The notes below the pieces were generated by a model that was not told where the DNA came from, ran no database searches, and saw only the letters and a program-made list of their open reading frames with translations. A DNA stretch of 64,000 bases, taken from contig CAWDVP010000001.1 in NCBI GenBank assembly GCA_963805945.1, positions 384,770 through 448,769 on the forward strand, read 5' to 3'. Every line of letters starts with the position of its first letter. Positions within the stretch are counted from its first letter, which is position 1. This stretch comes from Vulcanimicrobiota bacterium (GTDB lineage: Bacteria; Vulcanimicrobiota; Vulcanimicrobiia; Eremiobacterales; Eremiobacteraceae). Position numbers and translations under genes: made by a program. Shown piece after piece: positions 1-38,175 of this stretch.

Positions 1-716
1 ATGACGAGGGTTGCCGAACTCGACCCGTAACTGATCGTCTCAGCGGACGTCGCCTTCTTTTGGAAGGAACCGTAAAGGATGGCCCCAGTCCATCCAACCG
101 ACGGGGTCTTTGTGACGCTCTCGGGGGGATCCACGGGTTGGGTGAGGTAACGCTGGCGCGAAATCGGGAACCACACCAAAGTTTGGTCGCTATGGAGCTT
201 GTACACCGGCACGCTCGCCGCGGCCAGCCACTGTTGGTACGCGTCCGGATCCTTTGACGGATCGGGGCGTAGGCCGTAGCCTGCGCTTACCAGTTCTTCC
301 TGCGTGAAACGACGCGGATCGCCGGCAAGAGCGGGCCGAACCGCCAGAGTCGTGCGCGATGGGTCAAACGGGCGCGGTTCGAAAGTCAGCTCCGAGCGAA
401 GATCGACGGAATAGGTCTTGGCCTGTTGACTGGCATCGGTGCAATCGAGCGTCAGCCGCTCGACGCTGTTCAGCAGCGTCGGACGCACCGCGAGGAAGCG
501 GATCACGCCATCCTCATCCGCATAGACGTGGATAGACTGGTTCGGGTCCTGGTTCCCTTCGGGGTGAAGCATGCAGTTGCTATCTGCGGGGGCGTCGACC
601 GACGCCTGCTCAAATTGAGCATCACCGGCAGGCTCTGCGGCGGCGGAAAACAGCAGACCCAAGATCATTATTGCGCACACTGTGCCGTAACGGCGGGAGG
701 AAATATAGCCTTCCAT
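1..716 (-). CDS. Secreted protein, partial (runs off left edge); possible G1/A4-family glutamic peptidase precursor
   Basis: Not in the ORF track because its stop lies outside the window. Manual translation from ATG 716 (RBS AGGAGG upstream) is open to position 1: MEGYISSRRYGTVCAIMILGLLFSAAA (signal-like)...GYGLRPDPSKDPDAYQQWLAAAS...SVGWTGAILYG. The pattern resembles G1 peptidase propeptide and N-terminal motifs (inference). Confidence 0.6.
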   Translation of the reverse strand, partial: MEGYISSRRYGTVCAIMILGLLFSAAAEPAGDAQFEQASVDAPADSNCMLHPEGNQDPNQSIHVYADEDGVIRFLAVRPTLLNSVERLTLDCTDASQQAKTYSVDLRSELTFEPRPFDPSRTTLAVRPALAGDPRRFTQEELVSAGYGLRPDPSKDPDAYQQWLAAASVPVYKLHSDQTLVWFPISRQRYLTQPVDPPESVTKTPSVGWTGAILYGSFQKKATSAETISYGSSSATLV

Positions 717-792
717 AGCACGCCTCCTCTGATTCAGAAGTTCCTCGGTGGACCGGGTTCTTTCATTGCCGCCGGAGGCCCCTTCGGCCCCG

Positions 793-1458
793 TCAGGACT
801 TGCCTTTCGGCTTGTAATCCGCGCCGAGATACCGCAGGAACGCCCGAACGAGCTCCTCGACCAATTCATCATCGGTCTTGGGCAAGCGCGGATCAGGCGT
901 GCCGGGCAGCGCATCGAACACGATGATCTCTTGCAGCGCGAATCCCACGAGCATGAGGGCGAACGGCGCCGCTTTGCGGAGATCCGGGTGGCTCATCTCA
1001 TCACGCTTCAACAAGAGGAAGTCTGCAACGCGTTGGACCGAGCGAGCGTTGAGCTCGGCGGCCTTTTTCTTGAACGCGGCACTGGGATGCGACAAGATGA
1101 ACTGATGCATCGCGCGCAGCATTTTGGCGTTCCGCCGTTGCGCGGCCAGGCTCTGCCGGACCAAAGTCTCGGCGAATGCCTGAAGCGACAGACGCTCGGC
1201 CAGGTCCGATGTCAGCACCGACGCCGTCGACGCGTCGAGCGACTCGAGGGTCTGCAGGACGACCGCGCGCATGAGGGCGTCCTTGTCCGGGAAACGGCGA
1301 TACACCGAACCAGGCGATAGGCCGGCACGGGCTGCGACTTTGGGGACGGTCGCCGCGTCCAGGCCTTTCTCGTTGAGGATCTCCCGCGCGGCTTTCATCA
1401 GCCGCTCGAGGGACTCGCGGCTTCGCGCTTGCTGGGGCGCCAGGGGTTTTTTGGCCAT
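793..1458 (-). CDS. TetR/AcrR family transcriptional regulator
   Basis: N-terminal HTH (AAREILNEKGLDAATVPKVAARAGLSPGSVYRRFPDK); divergent from an MFS gene. Confidence 0.93.
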   Translation of the reverse strand: MAKKPLAPQQARSRESLERLMKAAREILNEKGLDAATVPKVAARAGLSPGSVYRRFPDKDALMRAVVLQTLESLDASTASVLTSDLAERLSLQAFAETLVRQSLAAQRRNAKMLRAMHQFILSHPSAAFKKKAAELNARSVQRVADFLLLKRDEMSHPDLRKAAPFALMLVGFALQEIIVFDALPGTPDPRLPKTDDELVEELVRAFLRYLGADYKPKGKS

Positions 1459-1498
1459 GCTCCGTTCTCGCGTCCGCCCCGTCTATCGAAACGGGGTC

Positions 1499-1533
1499 TT
1501 GACACAATGTGAATGTGGGTTTACATTTACATT
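1499..1533 (+). promoter_or_regulatory. Sigma70 promoter of the MFS gene overlapped by a palindromic TetR-type operator
   Basis: TTGACA (1499-1504), 17 bp, TACATT (1522-1527). Inverted repeat AATGTGAATGT (1506-1516) / ACATTTACATT (1523-1533), 10/11 match. Confidence 0.75.
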
Positions 1534-1538
1534 TGCCT

Positions 1539-2765
1539 ATGACACCAGCAGTTCCTTCCGCCCCGCCCGGAGCGGGTTCCCCACTGCGCAACCGTTATTT
1601 CCGCCTGTTGTGGGCAGGCCGGGCGATTTCCGCCCTCGGGGACCAATGCTACCTGGTGGCGCTGCCATGGCTCATCCTGCAGTTGACGAACTCGGGCGTC
1701 GCGCTCGGTACCATTATGATGACCGGCGCGATCCCGATGGTCGTGCTCATGCTCGTGGGCGGTGTGCTCAGCGATCGCTTCTCCGCGCGACGAATCCTCA
1801 TCGCGACGACCTCAGTCCGCGCCATATGCGTCGCGGCGATAGGCGCGCTCGTCGCCCTTCACGCGGTGGCGCTCTGGCAGATCTACCTCCTCGCGCTCGC
1901 CTTCGGCAGTGCGGACGCTTTTGCTGCGCCCGCCTCTCAGACGCTCGTGCCCTCCATCGTCGACGCGCAGCAGCTGCCGGCTGCCAACTCCATCACCCAG
2001 AGCACGCAGCAACTGACGACGATCGTCGGGCCGGCGCCGGCCGGGCTGATCGTCAAGCTGTGGGGAATCCCGCAAGCGTTCTTCATCGACGCGTTCAGTT
2101 TTCTCTTCGTCATCGCCGCGCTGTGGCGGCTCCCGGATCCGCCGGCAGCGCCCACGGCCAAGACGCGCGCCGGCATCCTGGAAGCGATCGTGGAGGGATT
2201 ACGCTACATCAACGACGATGTCGCCATGCGCTCGCTGCTGTTCGTCGCTGCGGCGCTGAACTTCTGCGTCTCCGGTCCGGTGTCGATCGGATTGGCATGG
2301 ATCGCCAAGCAGCATTTCGGCTCACCGATCGCGTTCAGCATCTTCGTCGCCTCGGTCGCTGCCGGCGGTCTTGTCGGTGCCGCCGTAGCGGGGATCTACA
2401 AGCCGCGCAAACGCGGCCTGCTGATGCTGACGATCAGCGTCTCGATAGCGCTCGGCATGGCGCTGCTCGGCGTCGTGACGCAAGCGTGGACGCTGAGCAT
2501 GGTGCTGTTCGTCATGGGTGCGGCGTCCGGATTTCTCAACGTGCATATCGTGGCCTGGTTCCAGCAGCGCGTCGACCGCACCATGCTGGGTCGGACCATG
2601 AGCGTCATCATGCTCGCGGCGGTGGGTCTGCAGCCCATCTCGCTGGCGATCGCCGGCGTCGCCGTCGCATGGAGCGTCGAAGGCATGTTCGCCGGCGCCG
2701 CCGCGCTGATGCTGCTGGTCACCACGCTAGCGGCGCTTCATGCACCGGTGCGAGAAATTCAGTGA
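1539..2765 (+). CDS. MFS transporter (DHA3/MFS_3-like efflux permease)
   Basis: About 12 hydrophobic segments; PLRNRYFRLLW and GGVLSDRFSARR motifs; ATG 1539 lies just downstream of the promoter. Confidence 0.9.
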   Translation: MTPAVPSAPPGAGSPLRNRYFRLLWAGRAISALGDQCYLVALPWLILQLTNSGVALGTIMMTGAIPMVVLMLVGGVLSDRFSARRILIATTSVRAICVAAIGALVALHAVALWQIYLLALAFGSADAFAAPASQTLVPSIVDAQQLPAANSITQSTQQLTTIVGPAPAGLIVKLWGIPQAFFIDAFSFLFVIAALWRLPDPPAAPTAKTRAGILEAIVEGLRYINDDVAMRSLLFVAAALNFCVSGPVSIGLAWIAKQHFGSPIAFSIFVASVAAGGLVGAAVAGIYKPRKRGLLMLTISVSIALGMALLGVVTQAWTLSMVLFVMGAASGFLNVHIVAWFQQRVDRTMLGRTMSVIMLAAVGLQPISLAIAGVAVAWSVEGMFAGAAALMLLVTTLAALHAPVREIQ

Positions 2766-3138
2766 CTGCTCATCGGCGCCCCAAGTATGTCCTTGGGCGC
2801 TGCTGTTCTCAACGTTGGGCATTCGAACACGCGCTCGTGCAGGGATGACGGAGGATGTGCAAACCACATGGACCCAACGCCTTGACCTGATAGCGCTCCA
2901 TGACGATGGACCCGGTCAGCGTGGCACAAAGTGAACAGGGTTCTGCTCATCAAGCGCGCTGGGGTCGGCTATAAGCAGGCGGAAGACAACTGGTACCATA
3001 TCGTGTATCCGCCGATCGAGCACTCCGGCTGGATCTGCTGCTGCGCGGATTAGCGTACCCAGTTCTTCGGCTTCGACCACGTCGACACGCGCGTGCGTTC
3101 GCTCGCCGTGGTCGAGCCGTTCTTTTATAGCACTGCGG

Positions 3139-3271
3139 ACCGCACGTTGCCAATTTCCTTACCGGACGTTTCGGCTCGCCACCCATCAATTGCATAGTTG
3201 GCGCCCGCGCGTTCCAAGATAGCCTTGCACCTGCGTCCTTGCAAATACGAACGTCCGGTCACCGATTCAAA
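3139..3271. repeat. Cluster of ACCGGACGTT motifs (island spacer 1)
   Basis: ACCGCACGTT 3139-3148 (9/10), ACCGGACGTT 3161-3170, inverted copy 3250-3259 (minus strand TTTGAATCGGTGACCGGACGTTC). Confidence 0.8.
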
Positions 3272-3296
3272 GCGCTCTCCGGCGGAGAAAAAATCC

Positions 3297-3764
3297 TCAG
3301 TGCCCTGACCGCGACCCTTCGCCGAAGTGGTCGATGACAAAGCAAGGGCCATCTGGACCTTCGCCCCCGTTGTGGACCGTGAAGTTCATAAGCTTGGTCG
3401 GTCCGGATACTGCTGCTGCAAGAAGCACGCTTCCGGGGCCGCCGAAGACGCTTGGGACCCTATTTGCGGCCGTGAAGTGGAAACCCATTTGGAGAATTGT
3501 GGCTGAAAAAGGGCAGAACTGGTTCGGCTCGGACGTCTTGACCGCACGATTTGAATAGGCGCACTCGCCGGGCTGCAGACCTGACGAAGCAGGTCCCTTG
3601 CTCCTCGAGAAAGTGACCGTAGCCGAGTTTGGCGCGGTCCACATCGCGGCATTCATTGCGCCGATCTTGCAGGTAAACGGGAAGCTTGCTGCACCGGCCG
3701 GCGCAAGGGTCGAAAGCGGCAACCCCAACGCGAGGGCAAGGATGAGCGCAAGTCGCTTTAACAC
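3297..3764 (-). CDS. Secreted hypothetical protein with four Cys
   Basis: GAGGAGG RBS before GTG 3764; signal peptide MLKRLALILALALGLPLSTLAPAGA. Confidence 0.75.
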   Translation of the reverse strand: MLKRLALILALALGLPLSTLAPAGAASFPFTCKIGAMNAAMWTAPNSATVTFSRSKGPASSGLQPGECAYSNRAVKTSEPNQFCPFSATILQMGFHFTAANRVPSVFGGPGSVLLAAAVSGPTKLMNFTVHNGGEGPDGPCFVIDHFGEGSRSGH

Positions 3765-3882
3765 TTGAACCTCCTCGGGGCTCGCCAACGTAAGCACGTA
3801 GCCTATAATGCCCCGGATGGTCGAACCTTTTCGACGCCATTGTCGTTATCGGCCTGGCTGAGCGAAGTGGCCTATGCGAAGT

Positions 3883-4869
3883 CTATCCTTGACCAGGCAG
3901 GAACCTTGCGTGAACGAGTGTCTGAAAGCTCGTTAGGAACCAGATCGTTCCGTCTCTAGCAAAAAGAATCGTTCCGCTGTGACGGGTTCCCAGCTGGACC
4001 GGCGCGCACGAGACCCGTTCGCTCGGATCGACTCGGCAGAGGCCCCGAGCCCAGACCCATGCGCTGTGGTCGGGTCCCACCGTGAACAGCAAGTCGAGTG
4101 GCATGTGTGCGCCCCACGAACTGAAGTCGATCAATTGCAAGCGCTTGCTCGTGCCATCGACCTGAATGTGAATAATACCGAAAGAATCACCTTCCCAGTC
4201 ACACGCTGGCCTCGAAAGCTTTGCTAGCTCGAACGTCGTTGGGTCGATCCGATAAGACGCGTGCGCCGTATGTGCGACCGCAACCCCGCAATCGACGCTG
4301 GGGTACGCCGACTCCGGTAACCTTACGGGCACAAATTGCTGGTCGGTGCTGCGAAGCGCAAATAGGGATGTGGGAACGCCACGTGACTGACGTCGGAGCC
4401 AGAGTGTTCCCTGAGAGTCGACGCTAAGTCCATCAAAGTTATCCAGAGTACCCCTGCTGTCATGTGACGGGACGTTATATGTATAGAGGTCGTAGTTCAC
4501 TCTCTTCCAAACCGTGACTGTGTTGTAGCGCGGTAGCGCAGCGGCAAAGCTATCCGCAGAAATGATGTTACCGCTTACGTCGACGTCGCGTTCAACAAAG
4601 ACCAGTTTGAGGTTTCTGCCGATCTGCATGACGTTGCCCCGACCATCTTGTGGGTCTGATGCAAGCCAAACAGTCGTTCCATCGTGAACGTCCATAGCAA
4701 AACTCGGACCATGCATGTCGTCGTCGGATAGGTTGAAGGTATTCAGAATCTGAAGGTGCGCCGGCGCTCGAGGAACACACCTCGGGCACTCTTGGGCGTT
4801 CGCGCGAAGACTGCTCGTGAAAAACAGAGCGCACATAACCCAGAAGAGCCGCGAAAGTCCGACCTTCAT
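3883..4869 (-). CDS. Secreted hypothetical protein, probable beta-propeller
   Basis: Signal-like MKVGLSRLFWVMCALFFTSSLRANA; repeated strand motifs (VDSQGTLW, VGPDHSAW, FARDGTIWF). Start inferred; the ORF track extends to 4950. Confidence 0.65.
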   Translation of the reverse strand: MKVGLSRLFWVMCALFFTSSLRANAQECPRCVPRAPAHLQILNTFNLSDDDMHGPSFAMDVHDGTTVWLASDPQDGRGNVMQIGRNLKLVFVERDVDVSGNIISADSFAAALPRYNTVTVWKRVNYDLYTYNVPSHDSRGTLDNFDGLSVDSQGTLWLRRQSRGVPTSLFALRSTDQQFVPVRLPESAYPSVDCGVAVAHTAHASYRIDPTTFELAKLSRPACDWEGDSFGIIHIQVDGTSKRLQLIDFSSWGAHMPLDLLFTVGPDHSAWVWARGLCRVDPSERVSCAPVQLGTRHSGTILFARDGTIWFLTSFQTLVHARFLPGQG

Positions 4870-4932
4870 CTCTCTGGCAGCATCATAGCCGATATCCCCC
4901 AGATGGTCGCTCCAGATCGGCAAGAAACCGAT

Positions 4933-4958
4933 CGCGTGTCCCTTGCACAACTCTTTTT
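4933..4958. repeat. Internally deleted right-end copy of a second, tandem element
   Basis: CGCGTGTCCCTTGCACAACTCTTTTT resembles the right TIR GTGTCCC...GCACAACTCTTTTTT and abuts the 15-bp core. Confidence 0.7.
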
Positions 4959-4973
4959 AGGCCGCGTCAGCGC
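4959..4973 (+). repeat. 15-bp target duplication / att core, left copy (equals secA 3' end)
   Basis: AGGCCGCGTCAGCGC, identical to 10142-10156. Confidence 0.9.
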
Positions 4974-5103
4974 AAAAAAGAGTTATGTCCGGCTGTTTTG
5001 GGGTACCGGCGCGGTGCCCACGGTCCGATACGGCAAGACACTGTGATTTACCATGGTGTTATGGTGACCTGCAACCGAATCGCTACAATACGGTAGAGAA
5101 CCG

Positions 5104-5226
5104 GTGGAAACGTCCGGTTCCGCCGGTCGCAACCATAAGGCTCCACAGTGCGGTTATGCGGGTCAGCGGCTGCCGGCGCTGCAACAGCTCACACTTCAAA
5201 CCATCGTCGGTAACCGGACGTTCCAC
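5104..5226. repeat. Inverted pair of ACCGGACGTT motifs forming a long imperfect hairpin (island spacer 2)
   Basis: GTGGAAACGTCCGGTT (5104-5119) pairs with AACCGGACGTTCCAC (5212-5226) with one bulged base. Confidence 0.75.
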
Positions 5227-5236
5227 GTTAGTTAGA

Positions 5237-6244
5237 TCATCGCAAGGTCACAGGTGCAACTGGGACGCTTTCGGACACCGCGCTCAAGGGTGCAGGGTAA
5301 GAAAAGTCGACGCCGGAGACCTTGACGACGGCCTGCCACGCGGCTTCCTGGTTGGCGCGATCGTGAAAGTGCGGGTGGCGCATCGCCTCAATTGGGCCGG
5401 TGAGCTTCTTCGGCGCCGAGGCGAAGAATTGCCCTGAGACGTCGGTTCCGAACTCCGATGCCTGGAGGTAGCGACGGGCTGCGGTCTCCGGAGTATGAGA
5501 CATGCCGGGGATAAGCTTCATTAACGGAATCATCAGCCACTTCAAGGCCGGGCCAGCGTTTCGCGTCGCCTTGGTGTCGGGCGCGCTGCCGGGCGAGACG
5601 GCGTACACGGCCATGCCTGAGGGTAGCCGGCGTGCCAGTGCAGCGGCCCACCAAGCGACGACGAGCTTCGCGTCGGCATACGCCCGGTTGGGCTCGTACT
5701 TCACGTTCGGCCCGCTGCGCACCAGGGCTTCTACCGCGGCGCTTCGGTCACCCTGGTGATGCGTGGCCGCGAAGGCTGCCACGTCGGTGTAGCTGAACAT
5801 TGGTACGTCCCCTCGGGCAGCTTCCGAGCTGGTGATAACAATCCGCGCGTTGGGGCTCAGCAGGTTGGCGCGGAGCAAGCCGACAGTCAGTTGATGATGG
5901 CCGATCAGCGGGGCCTGAGCCGCCTCGACGCCCGCCTCAGTGAGCACGCGCTTCTTACCTCCGACCATCCCTGCATTGAGCAGCAGGAAATCGACCGGCC
6001 GACCTCGCTTGACGAGTTCGGCGAGCGCGGACTGAACGCTGGACGGCGAGTCCAGATCCAGCTCTAGCGGCGTAAAGACCTGCGTCTTGGTCTCAGCTGC
6101 GAGCTCAGCTGACGTTTCCTGTACCCGGGCCCAGCTGCGCCCGGTGACGATGACCTCGCGGTAGCCCTCTGCGGCAAGCATGCGGGCTGCCGCATGACCA
6201 AGCCCCGAGGTAGTGCCGGTGACGAGAGCGATCGAATGTTCCAT
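5237..6244 (-). CDS. SDR family NAD(P)-dependent oxidoreductase (retinol dehydrogenase/WWOX-like)
   Basis: ALVTGTTSGLG, LLNAG, YADAK (YxxxK); GGAGG RBS before ATG 6244. Confidence 0.9.
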   Translation of the reverse strand: MEHSIALVTGTTSGLGHAAARMLAAEGYREVIVTGRSWARVQETSAELAAETKTQVFTPLELDLDSPSSVQSALAELVKRGRPVDFLLLNAGMVGGKKRVLTEAGVEAAQAPLIGHHQLTVGLLRANLLSPNARIVITSSEAARGDVPMFSYTDVAAFAATHHQGDRSAAVEALVRSGPNVKYEPNRAYADAKLVVAWWAAALARRLPSGMAVYAVSPGSAPDTKATRNAGPALKWLMIPLMKLIPGMSHTPETAARRYLQASEFGTDVSGQFFASAPKKLTGPIEAMRHPHFHDRANQEAAWQAVVKVSGVDFSYPAPLSAVSESVPVAPVTLR

Positions 6245-6306
6245 GGGCGCGCCTCCGTAGTGAAGGGGGAAGGTCGAGTCGTGAGGCCCCGCGAGGCCAG
6301 GTCGAC

Positions 6307-6358
6307 TTGCCAATTTCGAACCTTTCAGTATAATAATGGATTAGATGGTCAAGGTCAA
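6307..6358. promoter_or_regulatory. Overlapping divergent sigma70 promoters for tetR and SDR
   Basis: Plus strand: TTGCCA 6307-6312, 16 bp, TATAAT 6329-6334. Minus strand: TTGACC 6358-6353, 17 bp, TATTAT 6335-6330. Confidence 0.55.
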
Positions 6359-6373
6359 GGAGTTTCGAACTAA

Positions 6374-6979
6374 ATGATTCAAAATGCCGCCAGGCCGCGT
6401 GGACGACCGCGTAGCTTCAACGAGAGCGCCGCGCTGGAAAAAGCGATCCAAGTGTTCTGGTTGAAAGGCTACGACGGAGTGACCATCGACGATCTCGTCG
6501 CAGGGATGGGAGTCGGGCGACCGAGCCTGTATTCAGTTTTTGGGTCCAAGCGAAGGATATTCTTGCGTGTCCTCCACGCGTACGCCGAGAGGAAGGGCGC
6601 TCTCGCCGCGAAGGCACTTCTCTCGCCGCAGGCTCTGCGCGACTCGGTCGCAAGCTTTCTGAGGTACGCCGTCGCGAGCGCGACCGAGAAAGGAAGCGCC
6701 TCGGGGTGTCTTCTCATGTGCGTCGCGCCGCTTGTGAACGACGTTGAGGTGCGGCAGTTCCTACGGAACAATGCCGCTGCCGCCGTGGACCTAGTAGAAC
6801 GTCGTTTCCAATCCGGGATCAGCGCGGGCGAAATCCCATCCGACTTTCCGGTCGCCGCACGCGCGAACCAGGTCCTCGACCTTGCCCGCGGTCTGACGAT
6901 GCGTGCACAGATTGGCATGTCGCGTAAGACGCTACTCAATGACGCCGAGGAAGCGGCCGACTTGGTGCTCCTACCATAG
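6374..6979 (+). CDS. TetR family regulator (NemR/ComR-like)
   Basis: RGRPRSF...FWLKGYDGVTIDDLVAGMGVGRPSLYSVFGSK; GCLL motif. Confidence 0.92.
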   Translation: MIQNAARPRGRPRSFNESAALEKAIQVFWLKGYDGVTIDDLVAGMGVGRPSLYSVFGSKRRIFLRVLHAYAERKGALAAKALLSPQALRDSVASFLRYAVASATEKGSASGCLLMCVAPLVNDVEVRQFLRNNAAAAVDLVERRFQSGISAGEIPSDFPVAARANQVLDLARGLTMRAQIGMSRKTLLNDAEEAADLVLLP

Positions 6980-7040
6980 CGTCGAAATGCGGCGGTTGTG
7001 ATCTCCGGCTAGCCTAGCCGCGGTCTCACTGAAACAGAGC

Positions 7041-7138
7041 ACCGGACGTTTGAGTCGGTGACCGGACGTTTCATTGATCGCGCAAATTGCAAGTAGCTTC
7101 ACGCGTGTCCCATAACAGCCGGGGCCTTGTGGGACACG
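7041..7138. repeat. Tandem ACCGGACGTT motifs plus a degenerate inner TIR copy / hairpin (island spacer 3)
   Basis: ACCGGACGTT at 7041-7050 and 7061-7070. GTGTCCCATAACAGCCGGGG (7105-7124) is 17/20 to the right TIR. CGTGTCCCA/TGGGACACG stem at 7104-7138. Confidence 0.75.
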
Positions 7139-7157
7139 GCAAGATCCGGCGCGCCGG

Positions 7158-9919
7158 TCAGATCCGAAGCGCTTCTTCGACCGCCACGTCTTCGTTCATC
7201 CGGGCGCCGACCGCTCGAAGCCGTGCGAATTCGTCGTCGCCGATCGCGGACCGGATCGCCTTTTCGAGCGCGTCGAGCGACACTTGTTCCGTGCTCTCGA
7301 TACTGAAGTTGTTGCGCCCGAACGTCTCCTCGGTGTAGCCAAGCAGGCGCGCGGCGAGCTGAGGGTCGCCTTGCTCCGCTCCGACGCGGGCGAGATTCAT
7401 GATGCTTATCGCGACGTGCGAAGGGGCCTGCGCGTCACGCGCAATCCTCAACCCCTCCCTTGCACGGCGTCGGCCCTCCTCGAAGCGACCGAGCGCGAGG
7501 AGGTACGCGGCGAGGTTGTTGTAGCTGATATATGAGCGCGCCGTGGTGATTTCGAGATTCTCAAGCGCGAGCTCGACCGCCCGTGCTGCGTCGCCCATCG
7601 AGAACTCGATCTCCGCAAGGTTGCCTACGACTGTCGAACGTACGCGATCGTTGCCTACGGCGCGCGCGATGGCGAGCGCTTCCGCATAGAGGCTGCGCGC
7701 ATCCGCGACCCTGCCCCCGAAATGCAGATTCCGCGCCATCGCCGATTTGACGCCGGCGATCCGGTTCTGGTAGCCCATCTTTTCCGCGAGCACGAGCGCC
7801 TCGTCCAAGTACCGCTGCGCCTCTTCGTGTCGGAACTGACGCAAGCACGCCTCACCTATTTGGACAAGAGAGCTTTGAATGCCCGCGATATCATCAAGCT
7901 CTCGGTAGAGCAGCAACGCGCGTTCCGCGTATTCTCGCGCTTTCGGCCACGACACCACGGCGAGGCTTTGGACCCTGTAGAGCCCCGTCCAAAGCCGTGC
8001 GATCGTCTGCTTCGAGGAGATCTCGCCCCCGAGCGCCAGCGCGGCATCGACGCGTGCCCGCCCTTCCGCGTCATACCCCTCCCACGACCAGTAGTCGTAC
8101 ATGTTCGAGGTGAGCGCCGCGCCGAGCTCGACATCGTGCTTCTCGGCCAGCGCCCAGTCGAGCGCGGCGCGGATGTTGTCGAGCTCCGGGTCGATGAGCG
8201 CGAGGTATGCCCTCGTCGGCACTGTCTCTCGGAACGTTGCGGCGCGTTTTGCGAAGTCGAGGAACTATTTCGCATGCCGGATCTGCATCGGCTCGAGCTC
8301 GCCGCTCTTCTCGAGCAGCTCGTGCGCGTACTGACGCGTCGATTCGAGCAGGCGGTAGCGCTGTTCCGAGCCGGAGAGCTCCGCGACGACCATCGACTTG
8401 TCGACGAGCGACTGGAGGAGGTCCAAGACCGCCCATTCCTCGATCGTCTCATCCGAGCAGACCGCCGATGCGGCGTCGAGCGTCCAGCCGCCGGCGAAGA
8501 CCGCGACGCGGCGGAAGAGCGTCTTCTCGTCGTCGGTCAGCAGGTCGTAGCTCCAGTCGACGAGCGCGCGCATCGTCTGCTGCCGCGGCAGCGCCGTCCG
8601 GCTGCCGCCGGTGAGGATGCGGAAGCGCTCGTCGAGCGCGACTCGAGCTGCTCGAGGCTCAGCGCCTTGAGACGCGGCGCGGCGAGCTCGATCGCGAGCG
8701 CGATGCCGTCGAGCCGGTTGCACAGGCGCGCGACGATCGGCGCGTTCTCGTCGGTGAGGCGGAACGACTCGGTCGCCGCGATCGCCCGTTCGACGAAGAG
8801 CGCGACGGCGCCGTGCCGCATCGCCTCCTCGGCACTCACGTCGGCCGGTTGTTTCGGGCACCGCGAGCGAGGGGACCCGGTGGACGGACTCCCCATCGAT
8901 GCCGAGGCCCTGGCGCGTCGTCGCGATGATGCGGACGTTCGGGCAGTTGCGCAAGGATCGCGTCGATGAGCCTGGCGGCCGGCTCGACGACGTGCTCGCA
9001 GTTGTCGAAGATGATGAGCGCGCGCCGCGACTTGAGGGCGTGGACGATCGCCTCGGTCATCGTCCTGTTCGCCCCCTCGCTGATGTGGAAGATCGACGCG
9101 ATCGCGTTCGGGATGAGATCGTCGTCGGACAGCGGCGCGAGCTCGACGAGCCAGACGCCGTCCGCGTAGCGGTCGAGCAGATCGGCGCCCACCTGCAGCG
9201 CGAGGCGCGTCTTGCCGACGCCGCCCGCACCGACGAGCGTGACGAGCCGGTGCTTGGCGAGCAGTCTCCGAGCACGGTGAGGATTTCGACGTCGCGGCCG
9301 ACGAAGCTCGTGATCTGAAGCGGCAAGTTGTTCGGCAGCGCTTCGAGCGAGCGCAGCGGCGGGAAATCCGACGCGAGTCCGGGCGCTACGAGCTGGTAGA
9401 CCTGCTCGGGATGCGTCAGATCTTTGAGACGGTGCTCGCCGAGATCGCGCAGCGCGGCCTGCGGCGGCAGCTCGCCTTGCGAAGATCCGCGCTCGCGCCC
9501 GAAACGAGCACCTGGCCGCCGTGGCCGATCGCGAGCAGCCGCGCGACGCGATTGACCGCCGGTCCGAAATAGTCGCCGTCGCGCTCGTCAGTATGCCCGG
9601 TGTGGATCGCCATCCGCACCTTGAGGTCGTCGACGCCCGACCAATCCTCGGCGGCGAGCCGTTTCTGTGCGTCGAGCGACGCGGCGATCGCGTCAGCGAC
9701 ATTGTGAAACGCCGCGCAAAACGCGTCGCCGATCGTCTTGAAGACGTGTCCGTCGTGGGCTTCGATCGCCGCCTGAAGGATCTCATCGTTGCGGCGAACG
9801 GCGGATTTCATCTGCTCGCGATGGCGCTCCCATCGTTGCGTCGAGCCTTCGATGTCGGTGAACAGGAACGTGACGGTGCCGGTCGGGAGCTGCTTGCGGG
9901 CTGCTATCGTCTCAGACAC
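7158..9919 (-). pseudogene. Class III adenylate/guanylate cyclase - STAND/AAA NTPase - TPR gene, disrupted
   Basis: TFLFTDIEGST, FKTIGDAF, GDYFGPAVNRVARL, GAGGVGKT, IIFDNCEH, LAIELAA and TPRs are spread over several frames. Frame switches near 9481, 9267, 8953, 8852 and 8640, plus an in-frame TAG at 8265-8267. Confidence 0.85.
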
Positions 9920-10092
9920 GGTGACCTTTCGGAGCAGGCGCCAATTTCATGCGACGACGGTGACGGGCTGATACTCCAGCCCAGCCTGATGCGAGCTATA
10001 CTTCGCCCAGACATCGCGGCTTCCTAGGATATGGGAAGCGCGAGGCGCTTGAACGCGATGAAGTGACGGCGCGCCATTGCACTTCTTTTTTT

Positions 10093-10139
10093 CGCTGACG
10101 CGGCCTAAGTGTCCCAAGACAGCCGGGCACAACTCTTTT

Positions 10140-10156
<17 letters not shown>
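10093..10156. repeat. Right junction: inverted target copy (10093-10108), right TIR (10109-10141), 15-bp core (10142-10156)
   Basis: CGCTGACGCGGCCTAA 10093-10108 is the exact reverse complement of 10140-10155. Confidence 0.85.
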
Positions 10157-12839
<2,683 letters not shown>

Positions 12840-38113: not shown

Positions 38114-38175
38114 GGGTCGACCTTCAGGTCGACCCTCGCGTCGTGGTGGGCCGATCTGAAGATCGGCCCCTACAT
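38108..38175. repeat. GTAG-type REP doublet (REPIN-like) between convergent genes
   Basis: GTAGGGGTCGACCTTCAGGTCGACCC (38110-38135) and inverted GGGCCGATCTGAAGATCGGCCCCTAC (38148-38173). Confidence 0.8.

Follow-up and report, generated by a model that had tools for sequence, protein, structure and literature searches.

Casposons are described as rare, autonomous, self-synthesizing transposons and as likely ancestors of the CRISPR adaptation machinery. They produce target site duplications (TSDs) of 13–15 bp, the end of the upstream gene is essential and the downstream sequence is dispensable, and mini-casposons integrate in vitro (PMC5137440, PMC6977970, PMC8464041). Tandem copies with one shared TSD were reported, as were solo terminal inverted repeats (TIRs) at the target sites of strains without full elements (PMC4779613). 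The 3' end of the aEF-2 gene was described as a protein-gene target, and the bacterial casposons known at that time were all intergenic (PMC4779613). We analyzed a 64,000-nt stretch of DNA from an Eremiobacterota bacterium (hereafter, the window), in which the last nucleotides of secA are duplicated on both sides of an insert. Positions 4974–10141 are probably a composite, non-autonomous insertion of the casposon type (Cas1 integrase) at the secA stop codon. The element contains no integrase; therefore, the enzyme must act in trans.

The genome holding the window (G000) is metagenome-assembled, with 2.3 Mb in eight contigs and a completeness of 82%. G002 (98% complete) and G036 (62%) are two other species of the same Eremiobacterota family, G036 belonging to a different genus, and G005 is a congener of G000. 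The family-level scans covered 32 genomes, and the class-level scan for M pairs covered 201. Three unpublished genomes (G010, G013, and G016) contribute tally rows, negative or weak results for the tip motif, and one control locus, and no positive claim is based on them. The tip motif of ~33 nt is designated T, the 11-mer AAACGTCCGGT is designated M, and the duplicated 15-mer AGGCCGCGTCAGCGC is designated the core. T1, T2, T3, and Td are the motif copies in the window (Table 1). Public soil metagenome runs represented the window sparsely (shares found of 0.15 or less), and assembly of soil reads gave short contigs of relatives, in which 4400–5240 was nearly uncovered and neither junction was spanned.

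The duplicated secA tail and its inverted tips

secA is an 899-aa open reading frame (ORF) on the minus strand, and its product contains all SecA Pfam domains and ends with ...KKCHGADAA. The core is present exactly at 4959–4973 and 10142–10156, and corresponds to the last 14 coding nucleotides of secA and the T of the TAA stop codon (10140–10142). secA is intact because the A-run of T1 supplies the AA of TAA. Both core copies are abutted by inverted repeats (4974–5002 and 10113–10141), which are 29 nt long and 90% complementary; over a 33-nt span, 28 matches were counted by eye. By arithmetic, the chance recurrence of an exact 15-mer in 64 kb is ~1e-4. With up to two mismatches allowed, the core gave four matches, compared with a mean of 1.25 in shuffles. 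Pfam analysis of nine ORFs in the 4959–10156 interval matched no recombinase family. An earlier note on this DNA had reported the exact duplication, the intact secA completed by the A-tract of the element, the abutting inverted repeats, and the lack of a recombinase, and our analysis reproduced each of them.

The description of the repeats in that note was correct for the core and the TIRs but incomplete. The direct repeat is exact over 20 nt (4954–4973 and 10137–10156) and extends to 30 nt at 96.7% identity with one T indel (4945–4973), exceeding 15 nt because a truncated third motif copy (4936–4958) lies outside the left core. In addition, a third core copy is inverted and exact over 14 nt (10093–10106), with a 25-nt inverted repeat at 96% (4957–4981 and 10084–10108), and a fourth, palindromic motif copy is located within the interval (7105–7137). 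Across T1, the inverted core copy and the real secA tail pair in a 14-bp stem. Inverted copies of the secA tail flanked by T-like sequence were observed at 10079–10108 of the window and in G001 (L043 12321–12385); in the latter, the 15-nt core is flipped between two T arms, which could be a hairpin-loop inversion.

The left junction of the window consists of an inverted T, the 15-nt core, and a truncated T, an arrangement that, by analogy, would be a casposon-like tandem junction. Intact examples of tip-spacer-tip junctions were also found in the metagenome contig L079, G035, and G011. We read Td as the tip of an older element that was displaced outward by a tandem insertion, and the most plausible reading of T1 is that it represents one generation among several of such ends, either solo or tandem TIRs, at the secA site.

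The core and T repeats have no further copies in the G000 assembly beyond the secA locus and recur at secA in relatives, as was found by the genome-wide search that the earlier note had proposed. The G000 insert is 5.2 kb long, with an inverted T of 29 nt at 90% and the exactly duplicated tail AGGCCGCGTCAGCGC. The G002 insert is ~2 kb long, with an inverted T of 37 nt at 94.6% and an exact 15-nt duplication of the tail AGGCGGCGCTCGCCC. The G036 insert is ~5 kb long, and its tail GAGTAGCCGCCT is duplicated exactly (14/15 as a 15-mer). Its inverted T copies match at 37/43 positions and are mutual best matches, as are those of G002 (35/43). The duplicated segment has the same limits in G000, G002, and G036: it begins with the second base of the Gly codon that follows CAC, and its last base is the T of the stop codon. 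The secA tails differ among genomes (at 5/15 positions between G000 and G002), and the duplicated cores are identical at 42/42 positions over the three. The duplicate is the host's own tail with both copies identical; therefore, it was generated at insertion, anew in each host. Such a host-specific de novo duplication indicates a staggered-cut integrase, not a conservative recombinase. All-against-all blastp detected no protein common to the three cargos, and hence no shared hidden recombinase, and the scanned ORFs of the G002 and G036 inserts matched no recombinase family. The long cargo ORFs of these two inserts have a lower GC content and, by eye, signal-peptide-like starts.

Conservative tyrosine recombination is an unlikely alternative. 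Circular cassettes with a palindromic site (inverted T, core, T) would recombine with the resident secA tail and T by means of a tyrosine recombinase acting in trans, for example the single Xer-sized one of these genomes, like integrase islands, integron cassettes, and Xer-dependent modules. G000 and L079 have a complete palindromic site at the far junction (degenerate in G002), and G018, G007, G009, and the cyclase cassette described below show either the secA tail with T or half of T as direct repeats that lack an inverted copy. A single PF00589 gene (331 aa) was found in G002, where rve, DDE_Tnp_1, IS110, IS256-type, and Y1 families gave no match. Recombination would also suit the changes of orientation: the neighbor gene X does not have the same direction in all genomes, and G001 has an inverted core. 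However, the identical 15 nt are the host's own in three species, and an incoming site would need a prior match over the whole core. No integrase was found within or beside any insert, and the locus is ~80 kb from the sole GC-skew inflection on the contig, which does not support a dif-type site. The earlier note had contrasted the 15-nt duplication with the 6–8-bp overlaps of tyrosine integrases; the host-specific duplication speaks against such enzymes, but an argument from the 15-nt length is weak. The common core of lambda is also 15 bp.

T was located directly after the secA stop in seven of the eight relatives compared. Over 30 secA loci, nine contained T (genera g1, g4, g6, and g2), and it was absent from all 12 sister-family loci; G036 and G037 also have T at secA. 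The match at secA was weak or absent in G003, G008, G012, G013, G015, G016, and G017. T stands alone after the secA stop in G005, G006, G009, G011, and G037. As T follows the stop codon in insert-free relatives, the "right TIR" is not peculiar to the window insert, which corrects the reading in the earlier note.

We therefore weighed the explanation that nothing is mobile here, with T and M being host cis-elements (terminator, insulator, or operator) and the repeats arising from homologous gene transfer and local duplication or inversion at a fragile palindrome. T after the secA stop in four genera, including G011 with 75 nt from secA to the next gene, is compatible with this explanation. The cyclase, SDR-TetR, and MFS blocks described below are likewise 89–93% identical between species with ~80% identical flanks, and the SDR-TetR block ends at stop codons without repeats. 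We consider this explanation quite unlikely, as the same exact joints (tip A-run to the second Gly base; T of TAA to tip) are found in three species with different sequences, no conserved hairpin or terminator signature was found for T, and complete M elements bounded by TIRs and TSDs are present at non-secA sites, one of them encoding Cas1. A terminator scan and alignment folding of 15 T copies supported no hairpin, and T as a terminator was dropped as a candidate. An Rfam search of 4700–10400 gave nothing relevant. An assembly artefact, with the core duplicate and inverted repeats produced by misjoined reads, would fit a metagenome-assembled genome, but is extremely improbable given the same architecture in the independent assemblies G002, G036, G039, G006, and G005 and in contig L079.

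The paired 11-mer and a Cas1-encoding element

Five exact copies of M are present in G000, four of them in the window (3161, 5108, 7041, and 7061). The secA-downstream loci of relatives (7–20 kb) contain two to six copies each, and five control loci contain none. M is usually paired at ~20 nt, ~35 nt beyond the distal end of T, and copies lie ~35–100 nt inside T. We detected 26 M pairs in 13 of the 32 family genomes, with no hits for reversed-pattern controls. Across the class, M pairs were found in 12/31 relatives in this family versus 2/166 and 0/3 in sister families. By genus, T and M occur in g1, g2, g4, g6, and g9, and were not found in g3, g7, and g8. T gave no hits in viral contigs. Three viral M-pair hits were judged unrelated; they are iteron-like repeats whose context and spacing differ and which have no related tips.

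A 16.4-kb element of G005 (G005:C3:448924-465366) is enclosed by inverted M pairs and has ~83-nt TIRs at 84%. An M pair lies ~53 nt from each tip, and the element is flanked by a 13–15-nt duplication. Beyond the far duplication lie another, truncated tip and four additional M copies. The element encodes a 447-aa Cas1 (L200:5769-7112; PF01867, E 1.9e-33; TIGR00287), whose best PDB match is 6opm (E 4e-18), the Methanosarcina mazei casposase (PMC6977970). No Cas2 or Cas4 was matched among the 24 ORFs scanned in this element. A 786-aa ORF beside cas1 has no family or PDB match and belongs to conserved bacterial clusters.

The tip of the G005 type occurs in nine copies in 5/32 genomes (control hits, 0), and two G005-tipped copies lack Cas1. 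One is in G006 (C85; ~6.1 kb, 13-nt duplication) and the other in G000 itself (C6:86180-87112; 0.93 kb, 14-nt duplication at 13/14). An element of 3.07 kb in G039 has a third tip type. Its TIRs are 45 nt long (91%), M is present in many inverted copies, the duplication is 14–15 nt, and it carries the SDR-TetR block also found in the window. A solo tip of this type with M-like repeats is present at the syntenic site in G000 and G040. The ends have a common layout, comprising the duplication, a tip of 33–60 nt, and an M pair 50–70 nt from the tip with ~20-nt spacing.

Two further observations concern the G005-type elements. A short G005 contig (C1, 10.4 kb; L202) contains three M pairs, a broken rve-type gene, and a G005-type tip that differs little from the right end of the C3 casposon. 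This contig may represent either another copy of the casposon or an assembly fragment with collapsed repeats. The far duplication of these elements is followed each time by another tip type, GGGGATACTACAC... (L203 ~9780 in G006, L204 ~8110 in G011, and G000 C6 ~87127), which suggests that casposon types insert beside each other's ends at shared sites.

The ends of the window element agree with those of the G005 element in the M pair, including its spacing and tip distance; the terminal 33 nt are unrelated. TIRs, a 13–15-nt host duplication, and the same secA joint in three species with tandem or solo tips agree with casposons. Cas1 was detected neither in the ORFs of 4959–10156 nor in the G000 assembly, and no polymerase domain was found in the window ORFs. 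The earlier note had proposed a site-specific, non-autonomous cargo element mobilized in trans and had named casposases among the known enzymes, and the recurrence in G002 and G036, M in the Cas1 element, and the Cas1-less derivatives support this. The Cas1 element and its derivatives also account for M, the 13–15-nt duplications, and the tandem junctions without further assumptions, unlike tyrosine recombination.

A transposase other than Cas1, for example an IS481-type rve enzyme or the 786-aa protein of G005, might instead move the elements, with Cas1 as a passenger. Some DDE families give duplications of up to ~15 bp, one rve gene is present in G000 (C6:163969-164259), and the membership of the 786-aa protein in conserved clusters, with no family or PDB match, would allow such a role. 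We consider this explanation very unlikely, since G002 and G036 have no rve, DDE_Tnp_1, IS110, or IS256-type match, and the 13–15-nt duplication, gene-end target, tandem stacking, and solo TIRs are the published casposase signature.

Several results weigh against a casposon-type insertion in the window. T and the G005-type tip are unlike in sequence, with only the M pair in common. No T-tipped Cas1 element was found in the 32 genomes, three metagenome contigs, or viral contigs, so the recombinase between identical TIRs that the earlier note had suggested searching for did not appear; the metagenome scan for T yielded three short contigs without an autonomous element. The link between T and Cas1 thus rests on the M repeats, the duplication length, and the architecture. 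Cas1 was not found in the G000, G002, and G036 assemblies (82%, 98%, and 62% complete), and only 2/32 family genomes encode it (G005 and G031; its context was read in G005). The 1003-aa ORF of the G005 element is a PolB lead only, possibly a protein-primed one: its atlas score is 0.98 to clusters in which DNA_pol_B_2 is present on 12–25% of members, and its Pfam E of 0.007 is below the cut-off. T1 and T3 of G000 match at 31/43 positions and are not mutual best matches (34/43 to G006), and the exact repeat in G036 is 12 nt. Simple insertion does not explain the inverted cores of the window (10093–10106) and G001. The cyclase cassette lacks TIRs, and its duplication comprises 18 nt of T, not 15 nt of target. 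T after the secA stop is well conserved in four genera, more than a decaying solo TIR need be, and may also have a host function. M could be the operator of a host regulator; G011 has an M pair upstream of gene X, and in G002 the M pair is 0.7–1.3 kb from either tip.

Composite structure and neighboring genes of the secA locus

The features of the window are listed in Table 1. The earlier note had regarded the 4959–10156 interval as one unit; it is instead composite.

Table 1 Positions of motif copies, target copies, and genes at the secA locus of the window.
Feature	Position	Strand	Description
Neighbor gene X	1..790	-	Secreted protein, ~465 aa in relatives, no Pfam family; far border of the variable region
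TetR + MFS transporter	793..2768	.	TetR 793-1458 (-); MFS 1509-2765 (+)
Lower-GC (54-58%) block	2769..4935	-	Two ORFs with signal-peptide-like N-termini, 3883-4950 (likely start near 4869) and 3297-3797; M copy 3161-3171
Td, truncated motif copy	4936..4958	-	~10-nt internal deletion; outside the distal core; oriented as T1
Distal target copy, 15 nt	4959..4973	+	Exact
T3, inverted distal tip	4974..5006	+	nhmmer E 7.9e-8
M 11-mer	5108..5118	+	Inverted relative to the 7041-7071 pair; lies ~100 nt inward of T3 as the subterminal repeat at the distal end
SDR-TetR cargo block	5273..6994	.	SDR 5237-6313 (-); TetR 6374-6979 (+)
M pair, 7041-7051 and 7061-7071	7041..7071	-	Starts 20 nt apart; 33 nt past T2; subterminal repeats at the secA-proximal end
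T2, palindromic motif copy	7105..7137	.	Distal half (7105-7122, minus-strand sense) matches that of T1 at 16/18; bounds the cyclase block
Adenylate cyclase-STAND NTPase-TPR block	7149..10071	-	92.8% identical to an intact 939-aa gene adjoining secA in G005
Inverted core copy, 14 nt exact	10093..10106	-	Separated from T1 by 2 nt; next to it, a degenerate motif start (10079-10092)
T1, tip abutting the secA stop	10109..10141	-	nhmmer E 1.1e-9; homologous copies after the secA stop in relatives
secA	10140..12839	-	SecA Pfam; zinc-finger coding end (...TGTCACG/G) directly upstream of the duplicated segment, at the position of the casposon "leader"
secA-proximal target copy, 15 nt	10142..10156	+	Last 14 coding nt + T of TAA

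In the casposon-type mechanism that we propose, a casposase would dock on the ends and recognize the conserved zinc-finger coding end of secA as the "leader". The strands would be attacked 15 nt apart, at CACG/G and at T/AA of the stop codon, and gap repair would yield the 15-nt duplication. Repeated use of the same target would stack elements in tandem, which would explain both the truncated older tip outside the distal core and the solo T in relatives. In the window, an M-bearing SDR-TetR element with T tips may have entered the secA stop beside an older Td-tipped element. The cyclase-STAND-TPR cassette would then have landed in the secA-proximal tip, duplicating the distal 18 nt of T (16/18) and separating T1 from its own M pair. 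Finally, the cyclase gene would have acquired six 1-nt indels.

We infer that the cyclase block is a later insertion into the secA-proximal T tip. Its gene (7158–9919, minus strand) is split over several frames and is a pseudogene; compared with the intact G005 copy, it has six 1-nt indels at ~9482, 9273, 9264, 8952, 8840, and 8631. Metagenome contigs agree with G005 at five of these six positions. Unlike the cyclase gene, the secA, SDR, and TetR genes are intact. Cyclase-STAND-TPR genes form a family with dozens of paralogues per genome, at 65–75% nucleotide identity, across the whole genome family.

SDR-TetR blocks with 86–92% identity are found at other loci in G005, G002, G001, G039, and G037 (SDR part). 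The block itself has no terminal repeats and ends at stop codons. The 60-nt gap between SDR and TetR (6307–6358) contains two strong divergent sigma-70-like promoters with 11/12 and 10/12 matches, as expected for a TetR-controlled pair.

The block at 2769–4935 is probably the cargo of an older element. Its ORFs had no family matches, and PADLOC and PHROGs searches of the cargo ORFs without a family match gave nothing but weak cyclase hits. The 3' part of the MFS gene shows 92% nucleotide identity between the window (1509–2768) and G036 (L069 19671–20000), and the SecA proteins are ~76% identical. This homology stops 3 nt past the stop codon, at a partial T copy in G036, suggesting that the MFS cassette was recently exchanged as well.

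The distance between gene X and secA is 0.74 kb in G011, 4.1 kb in G002, 5.9 kb in G005, 8.2 kb in G001, and 9.3 kb in G000; therefore, the region downstream of secA is a variable hotspot. The comparison of secA-downstream regions, which the earlier note had also recommended, thus revealed a variable region (0.74–9.3 kb) with T as a solo copy in relatives. The orientation of gene X relative to secA in G000 and G005 is opposite to that in G011, G002, G001, and G037. In G011, a half T and an M pair precede gene X (L042 11358–12996) and a full T follows it, so that it resembles old cargo itself. The hotspot cargo is repeatedly of lower GC content, with signal-peptide-like starts by eye (window 2769–4950, L069 5349–10292, L041 11030–12990, and L079 64–1161). 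Secreted-type proteins with no assigned function are thus repeatedly encoded beside secA, the gene for the secretion ATPase.

Several known element types were considered as candidates. A dif/terminus site is not supported by the GC skew, which is weak and has its sole inflection on the contig ~80 kb away. For a tyrosine-integrase island, no PF00589 was found in the window ORFs, and the only G000 match is on contig C6. An integron cassette array would require an adjacent IntI integrase with attI and attC cassettes in a single orientation; no tyrosine recombinase was found on the window contig, and the motif copies are in both orientations. A Tn7-like element was rejected on the 15-nt duplication, the A-run tips, and the lack of tnsABC/tniQ genes among the scanned ORFs. 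T is not a dispersed REP or MITE family, as it is present at the secA locus only; the true REP family of G000 has 101 copies, none in this locus. An origin of T from RAYT/REP was rejected because the Y1 transposase (C3:119726-120109) has its own REP family, unrelated to T. This gene encodes a RAYT-type Y1 (HUH) transposase with its own flanking REP hairpins GGGGCCGATCTTTAGATCGGCCCC, one REP being present in the window near 38149, and occupies the slot syntenic with the position of the SDR-TetR block in G005.

Comparison with known systems

We tentatively propose a joint reading of these results. This Eremiobacterota family may host a population of natural, cargo-carrying, Cas1-less "mini-casposons" with tip subfamilies of the T, GGGGTTAAT-, GGGGTATAG-, and GGGGATACT-types, each homing to its own conserved site. 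The common paired 11-mer would be the casposase docking site, and a rare autonomous casposon would mobilize the passengers in trans. A casposase would here have its first bacterial protein-gene target, the secA stop, where the zinc-finger end would act as leader, and the stacked units of 15-nt repeat and tip would be a living intermediate between casposon and CRISPR array, one earlier proposed from solo TIRs. If so, genes for secreted, regulatory, and signaling proteins would be shuttled between genera.

If the casposon-type reading is correct, casposases would also drive a hidden layer of non-autonomous cargo elements, like DDE transposases with MITEs and mobile insertion cassettes, and a bacterial casposase would be able to target the stop codon of an essential protein gene and leave that gene unharmed. 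The paired 11-mer would be a directly testable enzyme docking site, and the gene-exchange hotspot downstream of secA in these soil bacteria would be explained. The 447-aa Cas1, a mini-element of <1 kb, and a target of ~40 bp would provide a sequence-defined system for reconstituting site-specific, in-trans casposition from an uncultured phylum.

Like lambda-type islands and Tn7 at glmS, the elements are inserted at or after the end of a housekeeping gene that stays intact, and several accumulate. Tn7 makes a 5-bp duplication and has TGT...ACA ends and tnsABC/tniQ genes, and the att core of lambda is borne by the element. The window element differs from both in having no integrase or tns genes, a 15-nt de novo host duplication, and inverted tips with subterminal repeats.

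Among casposons, family 2 (Aciduliprofundum boonei and Methanosarcina mazei) resembles the window element in its imperfect TIRs, 14–15-bp duplication, and location at a 3' gene end with an upstream "leader" (PMC5137440, PMC4779613, PMC6977970), and also in tandem copies with a shared duplication and in solo TIRs. Unlike family 2 casposons, the window element has no Cas1, PolB, or core casposon gene and carries ordinary cellular cargo; its host is bacterial (Eremiobacterota), and its target is the secA stop, not a tRNA gene. The G005 Cas1, the candidate partner, is at 447 aa longer than the 404–405-aa family 2 enzymes. The ends of the window element carry the paired 11-mer, and the cited passages of the casposon papers do not mention a paired repeat.

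Casposons targeting aEF-2 are similar in using the 3' end of an essential protein gene, with a 13-bp duplication set by leader and ruler (PMC4779613, PMC8464041). They differ from the window element in being archaeal and autonomous, with a casposase that lacks the C-terminal HTH. Family 3 casposons likewise have bacterial hosts, and the G005 element is intergenic as they are. The secA elements, in contrast, extend into the 3' end of a coding region; all bacterial casposons known when family 3 was described were intergenic (PMC4779613).

In the literature listings, including the part of PMC6452270 covered, we found no published description of natural non-autonomous casposons and nothing relevant on elements at the secA 3' end or on mobile elements of Eremiobacterota. 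The closest counterparts are artificial mini-casposons and MITE-like elements, for which ends and arbitrary DNA suffice with a trans casposase in vitro, and the 0.93-kb copy on contig C6 of G000 is MITE-like. Unlike artificial mini-casposons, the Eremiobacterota elements are natural and site-specific, and carry 2–6 kb of functional-looking cargo.

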